This document shows positions 8,773 to 47,175 of a DNA stretch of 51,108 bases, one piece after another. The position numbers were made by a program, and so were the translations under genes. Location of the stretch: NCBI GenBank assembly GCA_963589235.1, contig CAVAJX010000038.1, positions 1 to 51,108 on the forward strand, written 5' to 3'. How positions within the stretch are numbered: position 1 is the stretch's first letter; every line of letters begins with the position of its first letter. This stretch comes from a bacterium. Lineage in GTDB: Bacteria; Bacillota_I; Bacilli_A; RF39; UBA660. The notes below the pieces were generated by a model. It did not search any database. It saw only the letters and a program-made list of their open reading frames with translations, and was not told the DNA's origin.

Positions 8773-8868
8773 TAGACAAAATCTCATACATTTGTTATAA
8801 TACATCCGAGTATTTAAAATACTCCTTGCTGTAATTACAGCCGAATAGTCCAAAAGGAGGTGTAAGAA
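8773..8868 (+). promoter_or_regulatory. rpsF promoter plus structured leader
   Basis: TAGACA(8773-8778)-17 nt-TATAAT(8796-8801) with an upstream TG. The leader has two hairpins: GAGTAT/ATACTC (8808-8824) and GCTGTA/TACAGC (8828-8841). It may be the S6:S18 autoregulatory leader. Confidence 0.5.
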
Positions 8869-35648: not shown

Positions 35649-35668
35649 TCAGTCGTTTTCTTTTTTAA
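35632..35668. terminator. Hairpin shared by the convergent agrC and agrD genes
   Basis: AAAACGAC/GTCGTTTT stem, T-rich on the + side. Confidence 0.6.
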
Positions 35669-35784
35669 TCACAAAGACTTTTCATAGCTTTTGGCTCATC
35701 AGCAATAGCCCAAATGCATCCTAAACTAGCAGTGCTAGCAGCCATCATAGCGATAGCAGTTAATAGATACGCGATTTTTTTCAA
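35665..35784 (-). CDS. agrD: AgrD-like autoinducing-peptide precursor (39 aa, TTG start)
   Basis: Not in the ORF track. GGAGG RBS 7 nt before the TTG. Product is (M)KKIAYLLTAIAMMAASTASLGCIWAIADEPKAMKSLCD. It has an amphipathic leader, a Cys+4 ring candidate (CIWAI) and an acidic EPK recognition tail. Lies 40 nt downstream of agrB. Confidence 0.7.
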   Translation of the reverse strand: MKKIAYLLTAIAMMAASTASLGCIWAIADEPKAMKSLCD

Positions 35785-41760: not shown

Positions 41761-44250
41761 ATGAACCTTTTAAGGAAATTATTCGATCACGAATATAAAG
41801 AAATGAAAAAGTTTACTACTTTAGCAGACAAAGTAATGGCTTTAGATGAAGAGTATTCAAAATTAACAGATACAGAATTACAAAATAAAACAGAAGAGTT
41901 TAAAAATCGTTTAAGAGACGGCGAAACATTAGATGATATCTTAGTAGAAGCATTTGCAACTGCACGTGAAGCTGCATTCCGTGTACTAGGTGAAAAACAC
42001 TTCTATGTACAAATTTTAGGTGGTCTTGCTATCCATTATGGAAATATAGCTGAAATGAAAACAGGTGAAGGAAAAACTTTAACCAGTGTATTACCCGCTT
42101 ACTTAAATGCCTTATCTGGTGAAGGTGTTCACATCATAACAGTAAATGAATATCTAGCAACCCGTGATGCTGAATGGATGGGTAAAATACATGAATTTTT
42201 AGGTTTAACTGTTGGTGTTAATACAAGAGACTTATCTCCTAAAGAAAAACAAGAAGCATACAACTGTGATATTTTATATTCAACAAATAATGAAATTGGT
42301 TTTGACTACTTAAGAGATAACATGGTTGTTCATAAAGAAGACAGAGTACAAAGAAAACTAAACTTTGCCATTATCGATGAAGTTGACTCAGTTTTAATAG
42401 ATGAAGCTAGAACACCATTAATAATCTCCGGTGGTGAAATGAAAAGTGCCAATCTATACATTGATGCAGACCGTTTTGCTAAAAGTTTAAAAGATGAAAA
42501 AGACTATATTTATGATGAAAAAACAAAAAGTGTTAATTTAACGGATGCCGGTTCAGAAAAAGCTGAAAAGACATTTAACATTAAGAACTTATATGAAATA
42601 GAAAATGCAGGGCTTCTACATTACATAAATCAAGCATTACGAGCTAACTACTCTATGAAAAATGATGTTGACTATGTAGTACAAGATGATGAAGTTATAA
42701 TAGTTGATCAGTTTACTGGACGTTTAATGAAAGGAAGAGCTTATTCCGATGGATTACACCAAGCAATAGAAGCTAAAGAGGGTGTAACAATAAATCAAGA
42801 AACTAAGACTCTAGCAACTATCACATTCCAAAATTTATTTAGAATGTATAAGAAATTATCGGGTATGACAGGTACTGCTAAGACAGAAGAAGAAGAATTT
42901 AGAAATATATATAACATGTATGTTATTGAAATTCCTACTAATAAACCAGTTATTCGTGTCGATGCTCCAGACCTAGTTTATGCTACTAAAGAAGCAAAAT
43001 ACAAAGCAATCATAAATTTTGTAAAAGAACGTTATGAAAAAGGACAACCAGTTTTAATTGGTACAATAGCAATTGAAACAAGTGAATTAATAAGTAGTTT
43101 ATTAAAACAAGCAAAAATCCCTCATGAAGTATTGAATGCTAAAAACCATGCTCGTGAAGCTGAAATAATTTCAAAAATCGGTTTAGGCAAATCTGTTACT
43201 ATCGCAACTAACATGGCTGGCCGTGGTACAGATATCAAACTATCAGACGAAATAAGAAATTTAGGTGGATTATGTGTTGTAGGTACTGAAAGACATGAGT
43301 CCCGTCGTATTGATAACCAGTTAAGAGGTCGTTCTGGACGTCAAGGAGATCCTGGTTATACTCAATTCTTCGTTTCAATGAAAGATGACCTAATGGTACG
43401 CTTTGGTTCTGATCGTATCGGTGAAATGATGAAGAACATGGGTCTAGGTGACCAAGCTATTCAAAGTAAAACATTTACTAGGTCAATTGGAACAGCACAA
43501 AAGAGAGTTGAAGGAAACAACTTTGATATTCGTAAACAATTATTACAATATGATGATGTAATGAATAATCAAAGAGAAATAATATATGAAAAAAGAAATA
43601 CTATTTTAGATAGTGATTCAATTCATGAAATGGTATTAAGTTCATTTAGACATCACGTAGAAGACTTAGTAAATTCTCATTTAGCACCAGAAGGAATGCT
43701 AACAGATAATGACTTAAATGAAATAGTAGATTTTGCTAATGAAAATCTATTGAAAAAAGATATTAAGAAAAGTAGTATCTCTGGAATTACAACAGAAGAG
43801 GTAATCGATAAAATTGCACAACAAGTAATAGCTGAATATGAAGAAAAAATCAAAGAGATACCAGAAGAAATAACTGATGAATTCGAAAAAGTTATAACAT
43901 TACAAGTTGTGGATAACTATTGGATGGAACATATCAACACAATGTCTCATTTAAGAGAAGGAATTCACTTAAGAGGATATGCTCAAGAAGATCCATTAAG
44001 AGCTTATACTATGGAAGGGTTTGACTTATTTGACTCTATGCTTCAAAAGATAGATAAAGATATAAGTATCTTCTTATTAAAGGCAGAAGTTCGTCACAAT
44101 GTTGAAAGAAAAACAGTATCAAAAAAACAAATAACTAACGAAAGTGATGAAGGAGTAAAGAAAACTCCAAAGAAGTCAAAAAAAATAGGTCGTAACGATC
44201 CTTGTCCATGTGGCTCTGGTAAGAAGTACAAACAATGCTGTGGTAAATAG
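41761..44250 (+). CDS. secA: Preprotein translocase ATPase SecA
   Basis: The MKTGEGKTL Walker A, the DEVDSVLIDEARTPLIISG DEAD box and the C-terminal SEC-C zinc motif (CPCGSGKKYKQCCGK). Confidence 0.97.
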   Translation: MNLLRKLFDHEYKEMKKFTTLADKVMALDEEYSKLTDTELQNKTEEFKNRLRDGETLDDILVEAFATAREAAFRVLGEKHFYVQILGGLAIHYGNIAEMKTGEGKTLTSVLPAYLNALSGEGVHIITVNEYLATRDAEWMGKIHEFLGLTVGVNTRDLSPKEKQEAYNCDILYSTNNEIGFDYLRDNMVVHKEDRVQRKLNFAIIDEVDSVLIDEARTPLIISGGEMKSANLYIDADRFAKSLKDEKDYIYDEKTKSVNLTDAGSEKAEKTFNIKNLYEIENAGLLHYINQALRANYSMKNDVDYVVQDDEVIIVDQFTGRLMKGRAYSDGLHQAIEAKEGVTINQETKTLATITFQNLFRMYKKLSGMTGTAKTEEEEFRNIYNMYVIEIPTNKPVIRVDAPDLVYATKEAKYKAIINFVKERYEKGQPVLIGTIAIETSELISSLLKQAKIPHEVLNAKNHAREAEIISKIGLGKSVTIATNMAGRGTDIKLSDEIRNLGGLCVVGTERHESRRIDNQLRGRSGRQGDPGYTQFFVSMKDDLMVRFGSDRIGEMMKNMGLGDQAIQSKTFTRSIGTAQKRVEGNNFDIRKQLLQYDDVMNNQREIIYEKRNTILDSDSIHEMVLSSFRHHVEDLVNSHLAPEGMLTDNDLNEIVDFANENLLKKDIKKSSISGITTEEVIDKIAQQVIAEYEEKIKEIPEEITDEFEKVITLQVVDNYWMEHINTMSHLREGIHLRGYAQEDPLRAYTMEGFDLFDSMLQKIDKDISIFLLKAEVRHNVERKTVSKKQITNESDEGVKKTPKKSKKIGRNDPCPCGSGKKYKQCCGK

Positions 44251-44433
44251 CTCGCAAACCCTTATAAAATAAAGAATTGTCAAAAATAGAAAAAATGATA
44301 AATTTGTCTACTGATGACAATTTGTTCACGACTTGTCCACATAGTATAAATAATGTGGAAAGAATTAAAAAAATAAGTAAAAAGGATGCAGACGACATTT
44401 TTAAACCGACATCCTTTTTACTTGTAGTGATTT

Positions 44434-44462
44434 TTGACATATTAATATTAATTTGTTATAAT
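44434..44462 (+). promoter_or_regulatory. Near-perfect sigma-A promoter with an extended -10
   Basis: TTGACA(44434-44439)-17 nt-TATAAT(44457-44462), preceded by TGT. Confidence 0.65.
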
Positions 44463-44468
44463 TTAAAT

Positions 44469-44647
44469 GTAGTAAATCAATTAGTCATTCGCGTTTTACT
44501 ATCAGATAAACAAATGTTTAAAGGAATAATGAAGAGTCTTAAGAATCTCCTCATGAATGACAAAAAATATACACATTAATTTTGTGATTGTTTTTTGTGT
44601 CGTATTCATGAAAGGAGACTTGCTAACCATTGTCAAGTCTTTTTTTA
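44469..44647 (+). ncRNA. Candidate ~180-nt transcript (sRNA or orphaned attenuator leader)
   Basis: Bounded by the consensus promoter and the terminator AGACTTG..CAAGTCT+T7 (44616-44647). No ORF with an RBS. An alternative long helix (44546-44561 with 44600-44619) competes with the terminator stem. Confidence 0.35.
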
Positions 44648-44697
44648 TTGCTATTTTTTCTAAAAGAAGGTAGATTTCCCCTTACCCCAAATTATAC

Positions 44698-45891
44698 TTA
44701 ATTATATATTTCTTTTACTCTTGCATAATATATTCTCAAAAATTTATTTAATCCTGCAATTTTAGCTAATGTTTTATTTTTACCTTCTGCTTCTTTTCTT
44801 AACATAAATAGATATACTGCATTATCTGTTTTTGGCCTACAAGACTTAATACTCTTAGTTATTTCATAGCCAACTTTTCTTAAATATTTATTTCCTCGTT
44901 TACTTATATGTCTATTACTTGAATTAAAATTTCCTGATTGATATGGTGGCGCATCTATGCCACAAAATGCTATCAAACAATTAGCATTTTTAAATCTTCT
45001 TATGTCACCAATCTCTGCAATAAGTCTTGCTCTGGTTTTAGGTCCAACACCTTTCATTTCATTAACAATATCAAACTCTTCTAATTGCATTGCAAGTTCA
45101 TCCATTTTTGATATAATATCATTAGTTACTTTTATAGAATTTCTTAAAAGTAATATACAGCTATCAATAGATAGTTGTAATGATTCATTATATGGACATG
45201 AAGTTATTATTGTTGGAGCTTTTGCATAAAGGTTATCTCCAATAATTTTACCAACTTTATGTCTATATTTTTTTGCTATATTATCTATTTCATTAACAAA
45301 TTCTTCTTTAGTTTTTTCTAATACTAAATTTGGATATGAGTATTTTTCATAGATATCCAATAATAATTCATATCTATTTTCTTCATCAACAATACTTTTA
45401 ATTCCAGGAAAAGTCTTATCAATCATATTTGTTAATTGAATTTTTAAACTTGTTTTAATTTTTATATATTGAGTATACTGCCTTGAAAGAAATTGTAACT
45501 GTTCTCTAATTTCATCTGATGGTTCAAATTTTCTTAATTTAAACCATTTATCACTACAATAACTAGCTAATTTTAAAGAATCCTTTCTGTCATTTTTAAC
45601 TTTTCTAAGATCCATATCACAATACTTTTTTATAACTAAAGCATTTTCTACACAAACAAAATAATCTTTTTCAATTAATGAATTTAATATTGGTAAATGA
45701 TAATGTCCTGTGGCTTCCATTAGAAATTTTATTTCTTCTTTATTTATATTTTTTATTTTTGATAATAAAATATCAAATCCTTCTTGATCATGATTAATTT
45801 CAAATGGTTCTTCAACAACTTCGCCTTCTGTTGTAATTATTGAAATTGTACTTTTTCCTTTTGAAACATCAATTCCTACTGCATACATCAA
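44698..45891 (-). CDS. IS110-family DEDD transposase/recombinase
   Basis: MYAVGIDVSKGKS N-terminus (RuvC-like DEDD domain). The C-terminal domain has GVGPKTRARLIAEIGDIRRF and FCGIDAPPYQSGN. Confidence 0.92.
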   Translation of the reverse strand: MMYAVGIDVSKGKSTISIITTEGEVVEEPFEINHDQEGFDILLSKIKNINKEEIKFLMEATGHYHLPILNSLIEKDYFVCVENALVIKKYCDMDLRKVKNDRKDSLKLASYCSDKWFKLRKFEPSDEIREQLQFLSRQYTQYIKIKTSLKIQLTNMIDKTFPGIKSIVDEENRYELLLDIYEKYSYPNLVLEKTKEEFVNEIDNIAKKYRHKVGKIIGDNLYAKAPTIITSCPYNESLQLSIDSCILLLRNSIKVTNDIISKMDELAMQLEEFDIVNEMKGVGPKTRARLIAEIGDIRRFKNANCLIAFCGIDAPPYQSGNFNSSNRHISKRGNKYLRKVGYEITKSIKSCRPKTDNAVYLFMLRKEAEGKNKTLAKIAGLNKFLRIYYARVKEIYN

Positions 45892-45899
45892 TTCTCCTC

Positions 45900-46075
45900 C
45901 TTCTATTAATAACTGGTTCCATCTCTTTTACATATCTTCATCCTGGCTTGTGACGCGAAAGTACATAAGTATTTCAACTTGCTTAATCGAATGTATTATG
46001 CAAAGGATGATCAACTGTCCTCCTTTACGAACGCGAAGTTCAGGTGTGATTTCGTTGACCAATTATCCTCTTACA
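45900..46075 (-). ncRNA. Candidate IS110 bridge RNA in the transposase 5' leader
   Basis: Locally GC-richer than its flanks, with nested helices on the minus strand (GGATAAT..ATCATCC, CAAC..GTTG, ACGAA..TTCGT). It occupies the position where IS110-group elements encode their bridge RNA. Confidence 0.4.
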
Positions 46076-46082
46076 TAATAAT

Positions 46083-46129
46083 AAAAAAGAGTGTAATAAT
46101 CAATTCATTATTTGAATTAAATATTACAC
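46083..46129. repeat. Long imperfect hairpin abutting the IS110 left end
   Basis: GTGTAATA..AATTC / GAATT..TATTACAC arms preceded by A6 (so T-run on the minus strand). May be a REP/terminator-like insertion target. Confidence 0.5.
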
Positions 46130-46192
46130 TTATATGGTACCAGGTTCTTTTTATATACAATCACATTTTATATTAAGAGAGGATGGTAGAAA

Positions 46193-46954
46193 ATGAAAAC
46201 AAACGAACATGATTTTTACAGTGAAATAGCTAATTGGTCTTTTGAAGATATAGACTATACTAGCGAAGTAATTACAAATTGGATTTATGAAGATGAAATA
46301 AAAAAACGTGTAAAAGAAAATACAAAAATTTTAGATTTGGGAACAGCAGCAGGAGAAAAAGTACTTAAAAATTTTCCAAATTGTGCTGAAATATTGGGAA
46401 CAGATTTCTCTGATGAAATGATAGAAACAGCTAATAAAAATTTATTACAAAGTGGAAGAAAGAATATTTTATTTAGAGTTATGAATAATCTAAAAATGGA
46501 TACTCCAGATAATTACTTTGATATAGTAACAGCACGTCATACAATAATTGATCCATTGCAAATATATAAAACATTAAAAACAGGTGGACAACTTGTTATA
46601 AGAGGTGTTGATAAATTGGATTGTTGGTCTTTAAAAAGAATGTTTAAAAGAGGTCAAGCATATCACGATGTTAAGCCTATAAGCTTAATTGATTATGAAG
46701 CAATAATGGATGCAGGATTTAAAGAAGTAGAATTAATTCCACTTCATGTAATAGAGTACTATAAAACAAAAGAAGATTTATATGCTTTACTAGTTAAAAC
46801 TCCAATATTAGATGACTTCTCAGAAGAATCATTTAATGAATATGAAAGAAAACCAATAGAGAAGGAAACATTTGAAAAATATGTTAAACAAAACACTACT
46901 GAAAAAGGCATCAAATTAATCAGAAGATATTATGGAATAATTGGGAAAAAATAA
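46193..46954 (+). CDS. Class I SAM-dependent methyltransferase
   Basis: Motif I (ILDLGTAAGE) and motif post-I (GTDFSDEM); ~250 aa. Confidence 0.8.
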   Translation: MKTNEHDFYSEIANWSFEDIDYTSEVITNWIYEDEIKKRVKENTKILDLGTAAGEKVLKNFPNCAEILGTDFSDEMIETANKNLLQSGRKNILFRVMNNLKMDTPDNYFDIVTARHTIIDPLQIYKTLKTGGQLVIRGVDKLDCWSLKRMFKRGQAYHDVKPISLIDYEAIMDAGFKEVELIPLHVIEYYKTKEDLYALLVKTPILDDFSEESFNEYERKPIEKETFEKYVKQNTTEKGIKLIRRYYGIIGKK

Positions 46955-47175
46955 TAATTACTAGTATGAATGCGAACAGTTTTTGTTAGCGTTCTGTCTA
47001 TTTATAAAAGAACAAAATAATGAAAGATATAACAAAAGTTATTAAATTTTGAAGATGAAATGAATAAAATTTAATTTGGTCAAATTCGAGCAAATTGATT
47101 GTTTAATAATATAAAAAAATAGTATAATATCTAATATAAATTAGTGAAAAAATATTAGGATAAGGATGATAAAAC

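Follow-up and report, generated by a model that had tools for sequence, protein, structure and literature searches.

IS621 of Escherichia coli is an insertion sequence of the IS110 group whose bridge RNA is encoded in the left end (LE), in the order 5′ stem-loop, target-binding loop (left target guide, LTG; hairpin; right target guide, RTG), and donor-binding loop (left donor guide, LDG; hairpin; right donor guide, RDG). Its LE is longer than its right end (RE), it has a CT core and no inverted repeats, its LTG resembles the top strand of the target and its RTG the complement of that strand, and its RDG pairs discontiguously with the donor (PMC11208160, PMC11208158). A −35 box in the RE and a −10 box in the LE are united upon circularization, which reconstitutes a promoter (PMC11208160). 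A second member of the group from a Firmicute, CazIS110-1 of Caloranaerobacter azorensis, has a bridge RNA with a target and a donor loop, uses copy-out and direct-transfer pathways, and produces an abundant RNA with the target loop only (bioRxiv 10.1101/2025.10.25.684509). In the related IS1111 group, whose recombinases are of the same family and whose target choice is also RNA guided (seekRNA), the RNA lies in a long RE and the elements have subterminal inverted repeats of 7–17 bp (PMC11208160). Here, we describe an element on the minus strand of a 51,108-nt stretch of DNA (contig CAVAJX010000038.1 of assembly GCA_963589235.1; hereafter the window, to which all coordinates refer). The element, at 44618–46141, is very probably a complete and recently active IS110-group insertion sequence of 1,524 bp with a bridge RNA of its own.

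The element resembles IS621 in all the features listed above, and the two recombinases share the DEDD and Tnp domains. There are also clear differences. The similarity between the two recombinases is remote (E = 1e-14 over two segments), and the host belongs to a low-GC, uncultured gut lineage of the Bacilli. The RTG comprises 7 nt including the core, compared with 4 nt in IS621, and the target and donor modules adjoin without a linker. The RNA model contains an additional covarying helix between the base of the target module and a segment located 3′ of the donor module, and a conserved U-tract follows the 5′ stem-loop. IS621 inserts into repetitive extragenic palindromic (REP) elements, whereas the targets of the present element look like ribosome-binding-site regions. 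With CazIS110-1, the element shares membership in the IS110 group and a bridge RNA with target and donor loops. The element differs from the IS1111 group in that the matches to its RNA model lie in the LE and its RE is only 80 nt long; no subterminal repeats were visible on reading both ends, a reading that did not include a dedicated repeat search. Among the annotated DNA of the plasmid collection, the closest match is an IS110 family transposase on Clostridium perfringens plasmids (NZ_CP013040.1), which is 67% identical over 55% of the element and does not represent the same insertion sequence.

The boundaries of the element were determined from empty sites, which were found by searching public assemblies for the neighboring 253-aa methyltransferase; the search returned contigs with and without the transposase. 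In five strains, the spacer between secA and the methyltransferase gene is empty and reads tcatgaaaggAGgttc at the core (on the plus strand, ...CATGAAAGG-AG-GTTCTTTTT..., or, in a longer reading, ...GTCGTATTCATGAAAGG-AG-GTTCTTTTTATATAC...). Compared with these strains, the insertion in the window is precise and 1,524 bp long, and it lies in the 5′ region of the methyltransferase gene, downstream of secA. The flank shared with the empty sites (..GAAAGGAG) extends to position 44617, where it is followed by ACTTGCTAACC, and it resumes at 46144 with GTTCTTTTT, which is preceded by ..ATATGGTACC-AG. On the plus strand, the occupied site reads ...AAAGG-AG|ACTTGC...GGTACC-AG|GTTC.... The dinucleotide CT of the element strand (AG on the plus strand) is thus present once in the empty site and on both sides of the insertion in the occupied site, which places the insertion at 44618–46141 and the junctions at 44617|44618 and 46141|46142. 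The left copy of the core, at the left target/element junction, occupies 46142–46143 (...ggtaccAG|gttc on the plus strand), and the right copy occupies 44616–44617 (gaaaggAG|acttgctaacc, the left side of the occupied site on the plus strand).

These boundaries divide the element into a 253-nt LE, a 1,191-nt coding sequence, and an 80-nt RE. Both the longer noncoding LE and the flanking by a short dinucleotide core, in place of a longer target duplication, are characteristic of the IS110 group. The ends (GGTACCATAT... and ...GTTAGCAAGT) carry no terminal inverted repeats, as an initial annotation of this DNA had already noted. An alignment of six related copies in unrelated flanks gives conservation that starts with CCTGGTACC and stops with GCAAGTCTCC. 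The contigs of several relatives break exactly at the ends of the element, as expected for a repeated unit. Within the window, the element is present as a single copy.

The initial annotation had placed the ends at 44655 and 46129, with TCTTTT at both presumed junctions, between two hairpins. On a reading with these ends, TCTTTT would form direct repeats, and the element would have inserted between two pre-existing host hairpins that it targets. TCTTTT does occur near both of these positions, and the hairpins lie just outside them. However, the strings are internal T-tracts, the true junctions have a CT core, and the empty sites contain neither hairpin, as the whole 1,524 bp with the core is what was inserted. 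In addition, both hairpins accompany the element into unrelated flanks, and neither is found elsewhere in the window. We therefore regard these boundaries as refuted, with hardly any chance left to them. It was the comparison with strains lacking the insertion, a check put forward in the same annotation, that fixed the exact ends. The element is of a known kind, with boundaries and a target site other than those first proposed, and two apparent host hairpins become parts of the element.

The recombinase is encoded on the minus strand. The open reading frame (ORF) at 44698–45891 had been described as a 397-aa DEDD transposase, and the Pfam matches (DEDD_Tnp_IS110, 4e-33; Transposase_20, 7e-21; both above the cut-offs) bear this out, showing the N-terminal RuvC-like DEDD domain (PF01548) and the C-terminal Tnp domain with the catalytic serine (PF02371) that define the family. 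Translation likely starts three nucleotides further in, at the ATG at 45888, because GGAGG lies 7 nt before this codon (ribosome-binding site [RBS] GGAGGAG at 45894–45900), relatives use the same ATG, and the product in public gene calls has 396 aa, encoded by 44698–45888. The exact 396-aa protein is on record, in many assemblies, and the exact 397-aa protein with a TTG start is not; ERZ27314055 is one of the samples with the element. About 7,700 homologs were obtained at E ≤ 1e-60. The recombinase matches the solved structure of IS621 (8wt6, E = 1.2e-14), with the GID, EATG, D..D, and SK.G motifs aligned, and it is also homologous to ISCro4 (9t56).

Using the published geometry of IS621 (PMC11208160, PMC11208158) as a template, we assigned the parts of a putative bridge RNA in the LE, numbering the LE from window position 46141. 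The predicted RNA, which forms part of the overall interpretation and shares its high probability, would be about 200–220 nt long, with a 5′ stem-loop, a target-binding loop, and a donor-binding loop in the IS621 layout. The 5′ stem-loop (LE 12–52, 46130–46090) is a hairpin with 18-nt arms (predicted energy, −16.5 kcal/mol), and a U-tract follows it at 46082–46089; the stem-loop sequence differs per clade and always folds (−16 to −23 kcal/mol), with a U-rich tract after it. The target-binding module (46005–46068) consists of an outer stem (LE 74–77/134–137, 46068–46065/46008–46005), an inner stem (LE 82–88/127–133, 46060–46054/46015–46009), and an apical hairpin (LE 101–113, 46041–46029) with the conserved form GAAC-N5-GUUC. 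The donor-binding module (45926–46004) consists of a basal stem (LE 138–145/208–216, 46004–45997/45934–45926) and an apical hairpin (LE 167–185, 45975–45957). The GC content of 45950–46049 is 0.40, compared with approximately 0.21–0.26 in most of the transposase gene and the flanks, in agreement with the GC-rich leader described earlier. The initial annotation had taken 45900–46075 as the bridge RNA, a segment that does contain the target and donor loops and omits the 5′ stem-loop at 46090–46130. Two of the nested helices it listed, GGAT..ATCC and CAAC..GTTG, are conserved; the third, ACGAA..TTCGT, was rejected, as relatives have ACGTN without a compensating change.

A covariance model built from 11 close relatives gave 36 matches, including one full-length match upstream of every full-length relative, and extending to clades whose recombinases are only 41–54% identical. 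In the resulting alignment of 26 distinct relatives, 93.2% of the cells were paired and 26 of the 30 pairs had changes on both sides, compared with 37–47% pairing in controls in which the partners were slid by 1–3 columns. In the target module, the inner stem was paired in 97% (five of seven pairs compensatory) and the apical hairpin in 100% (three of four pairs compensatory); in the donor module, the corresponding values were 90% for the basal stem (8/8 pairs) and 98% for the apical hairpin (6/7 pairs). Among close relatives, variation is concentrated in the guide segments, and the stems hardly change. Two stem-loops with large internal loops, preceded by a 5′ stem-loop, are thus conserved, which is the structure expected of a bridge RNA and which alignment with IS110 homologs had been proposed to reveal. 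Support for the predicted structure comes from covariation and not from folding energy. An all-clade MAFFT alignment analyzed with RNAalifold placed the distant sequences wrongly and did not show the stem of the target loop, and the covariance-model alignment was used instead. An extended target-module stem (LE 62–72 with 138–148) was rejected as it was paired in 72%, less than the competing donor basal stem.

The additional helix is formed by CCAGUUAU (45909–45916), just upstream of the RBS of the recombinase, and AUAAUUGG (46059–46066), at the base of the target module. Across relatives it is 92.6% paired, with three pairs changed on both sides, and slid controls gave 20–55%. Both ends of the helix are in competition with the target module: the last two pairs with the first two pairs of the inner stem, and the first two pairs with the weak outer stem. 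The helix may serve to close off the entire RNA in a three-way junction; alternatively, it may couple RNA folding to translation. The IS621 papers (PMC11208160, PMC11208158) contain no description of such a helix.

All four putative guides track their DNA partners across the relatives, which are cited here by their labels. The LTG, AUCACAC-CU at 46050–46042, varies more among close relatives than any other stretch of the LE. It equals the left flank plus core at seven of seven positions in five copies, which represent four sequences (L001, TTTTCAC; L002 and L095, ATCAAAC; L044/L022, ACATCAC; L069, TATCAAC), and at six of seven in L027, L064, and the P0063 type. Cognate pairs of LTG and flank outperform shuffled pairings (permutation p ~0.001). 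The RTG, AAAGG-AG at 46026–46020, matches the right flank in the window, CT-CCTTT, as its reverse complement at 5/5 positions, and it covaries with the right flank in other clades: UUGCAA/TTGCAA in L026, ACGAC/GTCGT in L034, ACGAG/CTCGT in L037, and AUAGG/CCTAT in L007. The first loop thus covaries with the flanking DNA, with exceptions that include the LTG of the window copy.

The second loop is complementary to the RE–LE junction including the core, by matches that are short and, at the core positions of the LDG, imperfect. The LDG (UUAAGCAAGUU, 45986–45976) has AGCAAGT in common with the RE end GTTAGCAAGT-CT, and in the L034 clade both the LDG and the RE end have AGCAGGT. Its predicted partner is the left donor GGTTAGCAAGT, the terminal bases of the RE at 44618–44628. 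In the RDG (AAGCC-AG, 45949–45943), CC-AG is the reverse complement of CT-GG, that is, of the core and the start of the LE; in TT-core clades, this part of the RDG is CC-AA, and CT-AA accompanies an LE that begins with AG. Discontiguous RDG pairing has been reported for IS621 (PMC11208160, PMC11208158), and donor-guide pairing is likewise short and imperfect here. Another candidate for the RDG, AUGGAACCAG at 45913–45922, resembles the reverse complement of the LE start at nine of 10 positions. It was rejected in favor of AAGCC-AG as it lies outside the donor-loop stem and its “core” bases ignore the core (AA with a CT core in L002, L005, and L022).

The behavior of the guides also bears on the alternative that the leader is a cis-regulatory 5′ untranslated region, such as an attenuator or a leader peptide translated from a AAAGGAGG RBS, and not a guide RNA. 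The leader contains AAAGGAGG-N4-TTG, which could start a short ORF, and the conserved helix between the base of the target module and the segment before the RBS could couple RNA folding to translation. A pure untranslated region would, however, leave unexplained why the variable loop segments follow the outside DNA (LTG and RTG) and the ends of the element (LDG and RDG). Moreover, where the target differs (L026, L034, and L007), the complement of the new flank stands in place of AAAGGAGG. We consider a purely regulatory leader very improbable and favor the assignment as a bridge RNA.

A promoter split between the two ends is a further feature shared with IS621. The RE contains a −35 box, TTGACA (44631–44636), preceded by an A-rich tract (44637–44660), and the LE contains a −10 box, TACCAT (46134–46139). 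When RE, CT, and LE are joined, the boxes form TTGACA-17 nt-TACCAT, in which the TG of an extended −10 element is made up of the T of the core and the first G of the LE. The split boxes and the 17-nt spacing are found in 15 of 15 representatives, across clades, so that, at the level of the sequence, a sigma-70 promoter would be rebuilt across the circle junction, which is predicted to read ...GGTTAGCAAGT-CT-GGTACCATATAAG.... In the integrated copy, there is no comparable −35 box upstream of TACCAT. An internal promoter-like site at 46103–46075, which could in principle yield a shorter RNA, scored no better than chance. Further upstream in the RE, after the stop codon of the recombinase, lies a conserved G-rich segment with a T-tract (GGGGTAAGGGGAAATCTACCTTCTTTT, 44661–44688), the second of the presumed TCTTTT junctions. 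This segment may provide the recombinase transcript with a terminator-like end; a terminator scan called no terminator there.

The −35 box lies within the hairpin at 44616–44647 that had been read as a host terminator. In this hairpin, the −35 region (CTTGAC) is complementary to the left donor (GCAAGT), and by eye a shorter pairing of CTTG with CAAG or CAGG is present in other clades. On the plus strand, the hairpin is terminator-like and faces the element.

By analogy with IS621, on which the mechanism as a whole is modeled, excision would join RE, CT, and LE into a circle, and the promoter rebuilt at the junction would then drive transcripts for the bridge RNA and the recombinase. The donor loop would hold the RE–LE junction and the target loop a target of the type ATCA(C/A)AC-CT-CCTTT, and the recombinase would exchange strands at the CT core. 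The ends and core, the covarying structure, the guide covariation, the split promoter, and the recent mobility enter this scheme from sequence comparison; RNA expression, the ends of the RNA, and catalysis we infer. Near-identical copies at guide-matched sites may be taken as an indirect sign of RNA-guided recombination.

Several observations weigh against the interpretation as a bridge-RNA element with functional guides. As the alignment used for the main covariation count had been fitted to the model, the pairing was recounted on a plain MAFFT alignment of the 11 close relatives, in which 95.7% was paired with seven compensatory pairs. Folding of the leader as a single sequence, which the initial annotation had suggested as a check, gave a structure no more stable than those of shuffled sequences (z = −0.26), and an Rfam scan of 44000–47000 (E ≤ 10) returned two chance matches and no bridge-RNA family. 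The outer stem of the target module is weak (78% paired), and the segment 3′ of the donor loop competes for the same bases. In the LDG, the second core base (G) pairs with neither core, and the first (U) only wobbles in the CT clade. A search for the circle junction GTTAGCAAGT-CT-GGTACCATA in viral contigs and in the retrieved loci gave no match. Finally, the loops had been expected to match the junctions of this very copy. They do not match the junctions first proposed; at the real CT-core junctions, the RTG, the core, and both donor guides fit, and the LTG agrees with its left flank (AAAGAAC) at only three of seven positions. A better site at 8853–8866 on the minus strand (CTTACAC-CT-CCTTT, 5/7 plus 5/5) is unoccupied in the window, and mismatched guides also occur in the relatives L039, L068, and the P0049 type.

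The same element is present at two other sites (L064 and L060/L006), with 2–3 nt differences in 1,524 (99.8–100% identity), and strains whose neighboring protein is identical differ in whether the secA site is occupied or empty. Together, the near-identical copies at three sites and the polymorphism of the secA site indicate recent transposition. At L064, the element sits at ATCAAAC-CT-CCTTTC, which its LTG matches at six of seven positions. These observations bear on the possibility that the window copy is a decaying, immobile relic whose guide matches nothing. The mismatch between LTG and flank might also hinder excision, and damaged relatives do exist (L006, with a replaced LE, and L004, without the RE end). 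The ORF of the window copy is intact, however, the catalytic motifs are present, and the structural elements and donor guides are all preserved. Given also the copies at the two other sites, one of them on a 6/7 guide match, and the polymorphism among near-identical strains, a relic appears improbable, and we retain the view of a recently active element.

How the window copy came to its site is less clear-cut. As the three near-identical copies have one and the same LTG, drift after insertion is unlikely, and we conclude that this copy occupies a poorly matched secondary site. It would have been reached either by off-target insertion through the 9-nt match AC-CT-CCTTT or through the bridge RNA of a sibling, with an LTG near AAAGAAC, acting in trans. 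The donor ends are common to all members of the clade, so any sibling RNA could mobilize any copy; close relatives differ in their LTGs, the bridge RNA of IS621 acts in trans (PMC11208160), and better sites in the window remain empty. On the other hand, no sibling with an AAAGAAC-like LTG was present among approximately 95 loci, the identical element at L064, on its 6/7 match, shows that its own RNA is used, and off-target events with more than two mismatches are documented for IS621 (PMC11208160). Placement in trans seems less likely than not, though it deserves more weight than the other alternatives considered here.

Some of the relatives show rearrangements. In L006 (1–149), the recombinase is 98% identical and the LE upstream of GAACCAG is replaced by unrelated sequence, without a bridge RNA; L060 has the same right flank and an intact copy. 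In L004 (1443–1640), the LE is kept and the right end diverges after the T-tract. This copy lacks the −35 box and the left-donor sequence and is therefore probably immobile. L065/L066/L070 and L075/L078/L083 carry the same element type in mixed combinations of left and right flanks, which could reflect recombination between copies, paralogous targets, or assembly chimeras.

The target sites of the CT-core clade with the RTG AAAGGAG have a common appearance. Read on the opposite strand, they consist of (A/G)GG-AG-G, a spacer, and a start codon, and the insertion point falls between the Shine–Dalgarno sequence and the ATG, with the element antisense to the gene. The sample comprises approximately 16 sites, some of them orthologous (left flanks of L001, L002, L023/24, L044, L064–L072, and L085–L093, and window positions 44606–44620), and the preference is treated here as a lead. 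At most sites, the gene encodes a hydrophobic peptide of 27–35 aa, mostly ending in IKK (e.g., MKKRNFVIKVLRYISIILLLLIIMIIVIKK and MKKKDLLITFLILIIILLVISVMILTIKK), for which nothing above noise was found in Pfam and NCBIfam. Other sites precede called genes (a DUF5684 protein and a 78-aa protein) or a 451-aa ORF. The site in the window has a Shine–Dalgarno-like sequence, GAAAGGAGG, with no start codon at the right distance, and no copy of the small-peptide gene or of its RBS motif was found in the window. The top strand of the target resembles the 3′ tail of 16S rRNA (ATCACCTCCTTTC). In place of the hairpin or REP targeting suggested initially, the Shine–Dalgarno/start-codon region thus emerges as the target of the family. 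A full-text literature search found no report of a preference of IS110 elements for Shine–Dalgarno sequences or ribosome-binding sites.

We tentatively propose, as a real possibility that falls somewhat short of a probable one, that this clade is specialized on ribosome-binding sites, with an RTG that has the sequence of a Shine–Dalgarno element (AAAGGAGG) and an LTG that reads the spacer ahead of the start codon. The preferred genes would then form a multicopy family of hydrophobic IKK peptides of about 30 aa, which could be toxin-like. As the Shine–Dalgarno half is universal, small changes in the LTG would suffice to retarget the element, and this would explain why the LTGs of close relatives differ. 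If true, specialization on ribosome-binding sites with shifting LTGs would amount to natural reprogramming.

The known mechanism of IS110 elements is unchanged by these findings. The locus adds an example from low-GC gut Bacilli of a well-resolved bridge-RNA element for which empty sites, near-identical copies, and relatives whose differing LTGs match their own flanks are available. Its interest lies in this natural series of retargeted guides, which illustrates guide reprogramming, and in the possible preference for ribosome-binding sites.

Upstream of the insertion point, at 44434–44462 on the plus strand, there is a perfect TTGACA-17-TATAAT promoter with TG, and in the empty sites it lies about 200 nt upstream of the start of the methyltransferase gene. 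A possible upstream ORF of 20 aa (ATGAAAGGAGG...) would overlap this start (region 44607–46195). The insertion separates the promoter and the 20-aa ORF from the methyltransferase gene, which is cut off from its likely promoter. Elsewhere in the window, at approximately 35665–35784 on the minus strand, a 39-aa ORF (MKKIAYLLTAIAMMAASTASLGCIWAIADEPKAMKSLCD) following AAGGAGG matches the AgrD cyclic lactone autoinducer family TIGR04223 with 21.7 bits, relative to a cut-off of 19.

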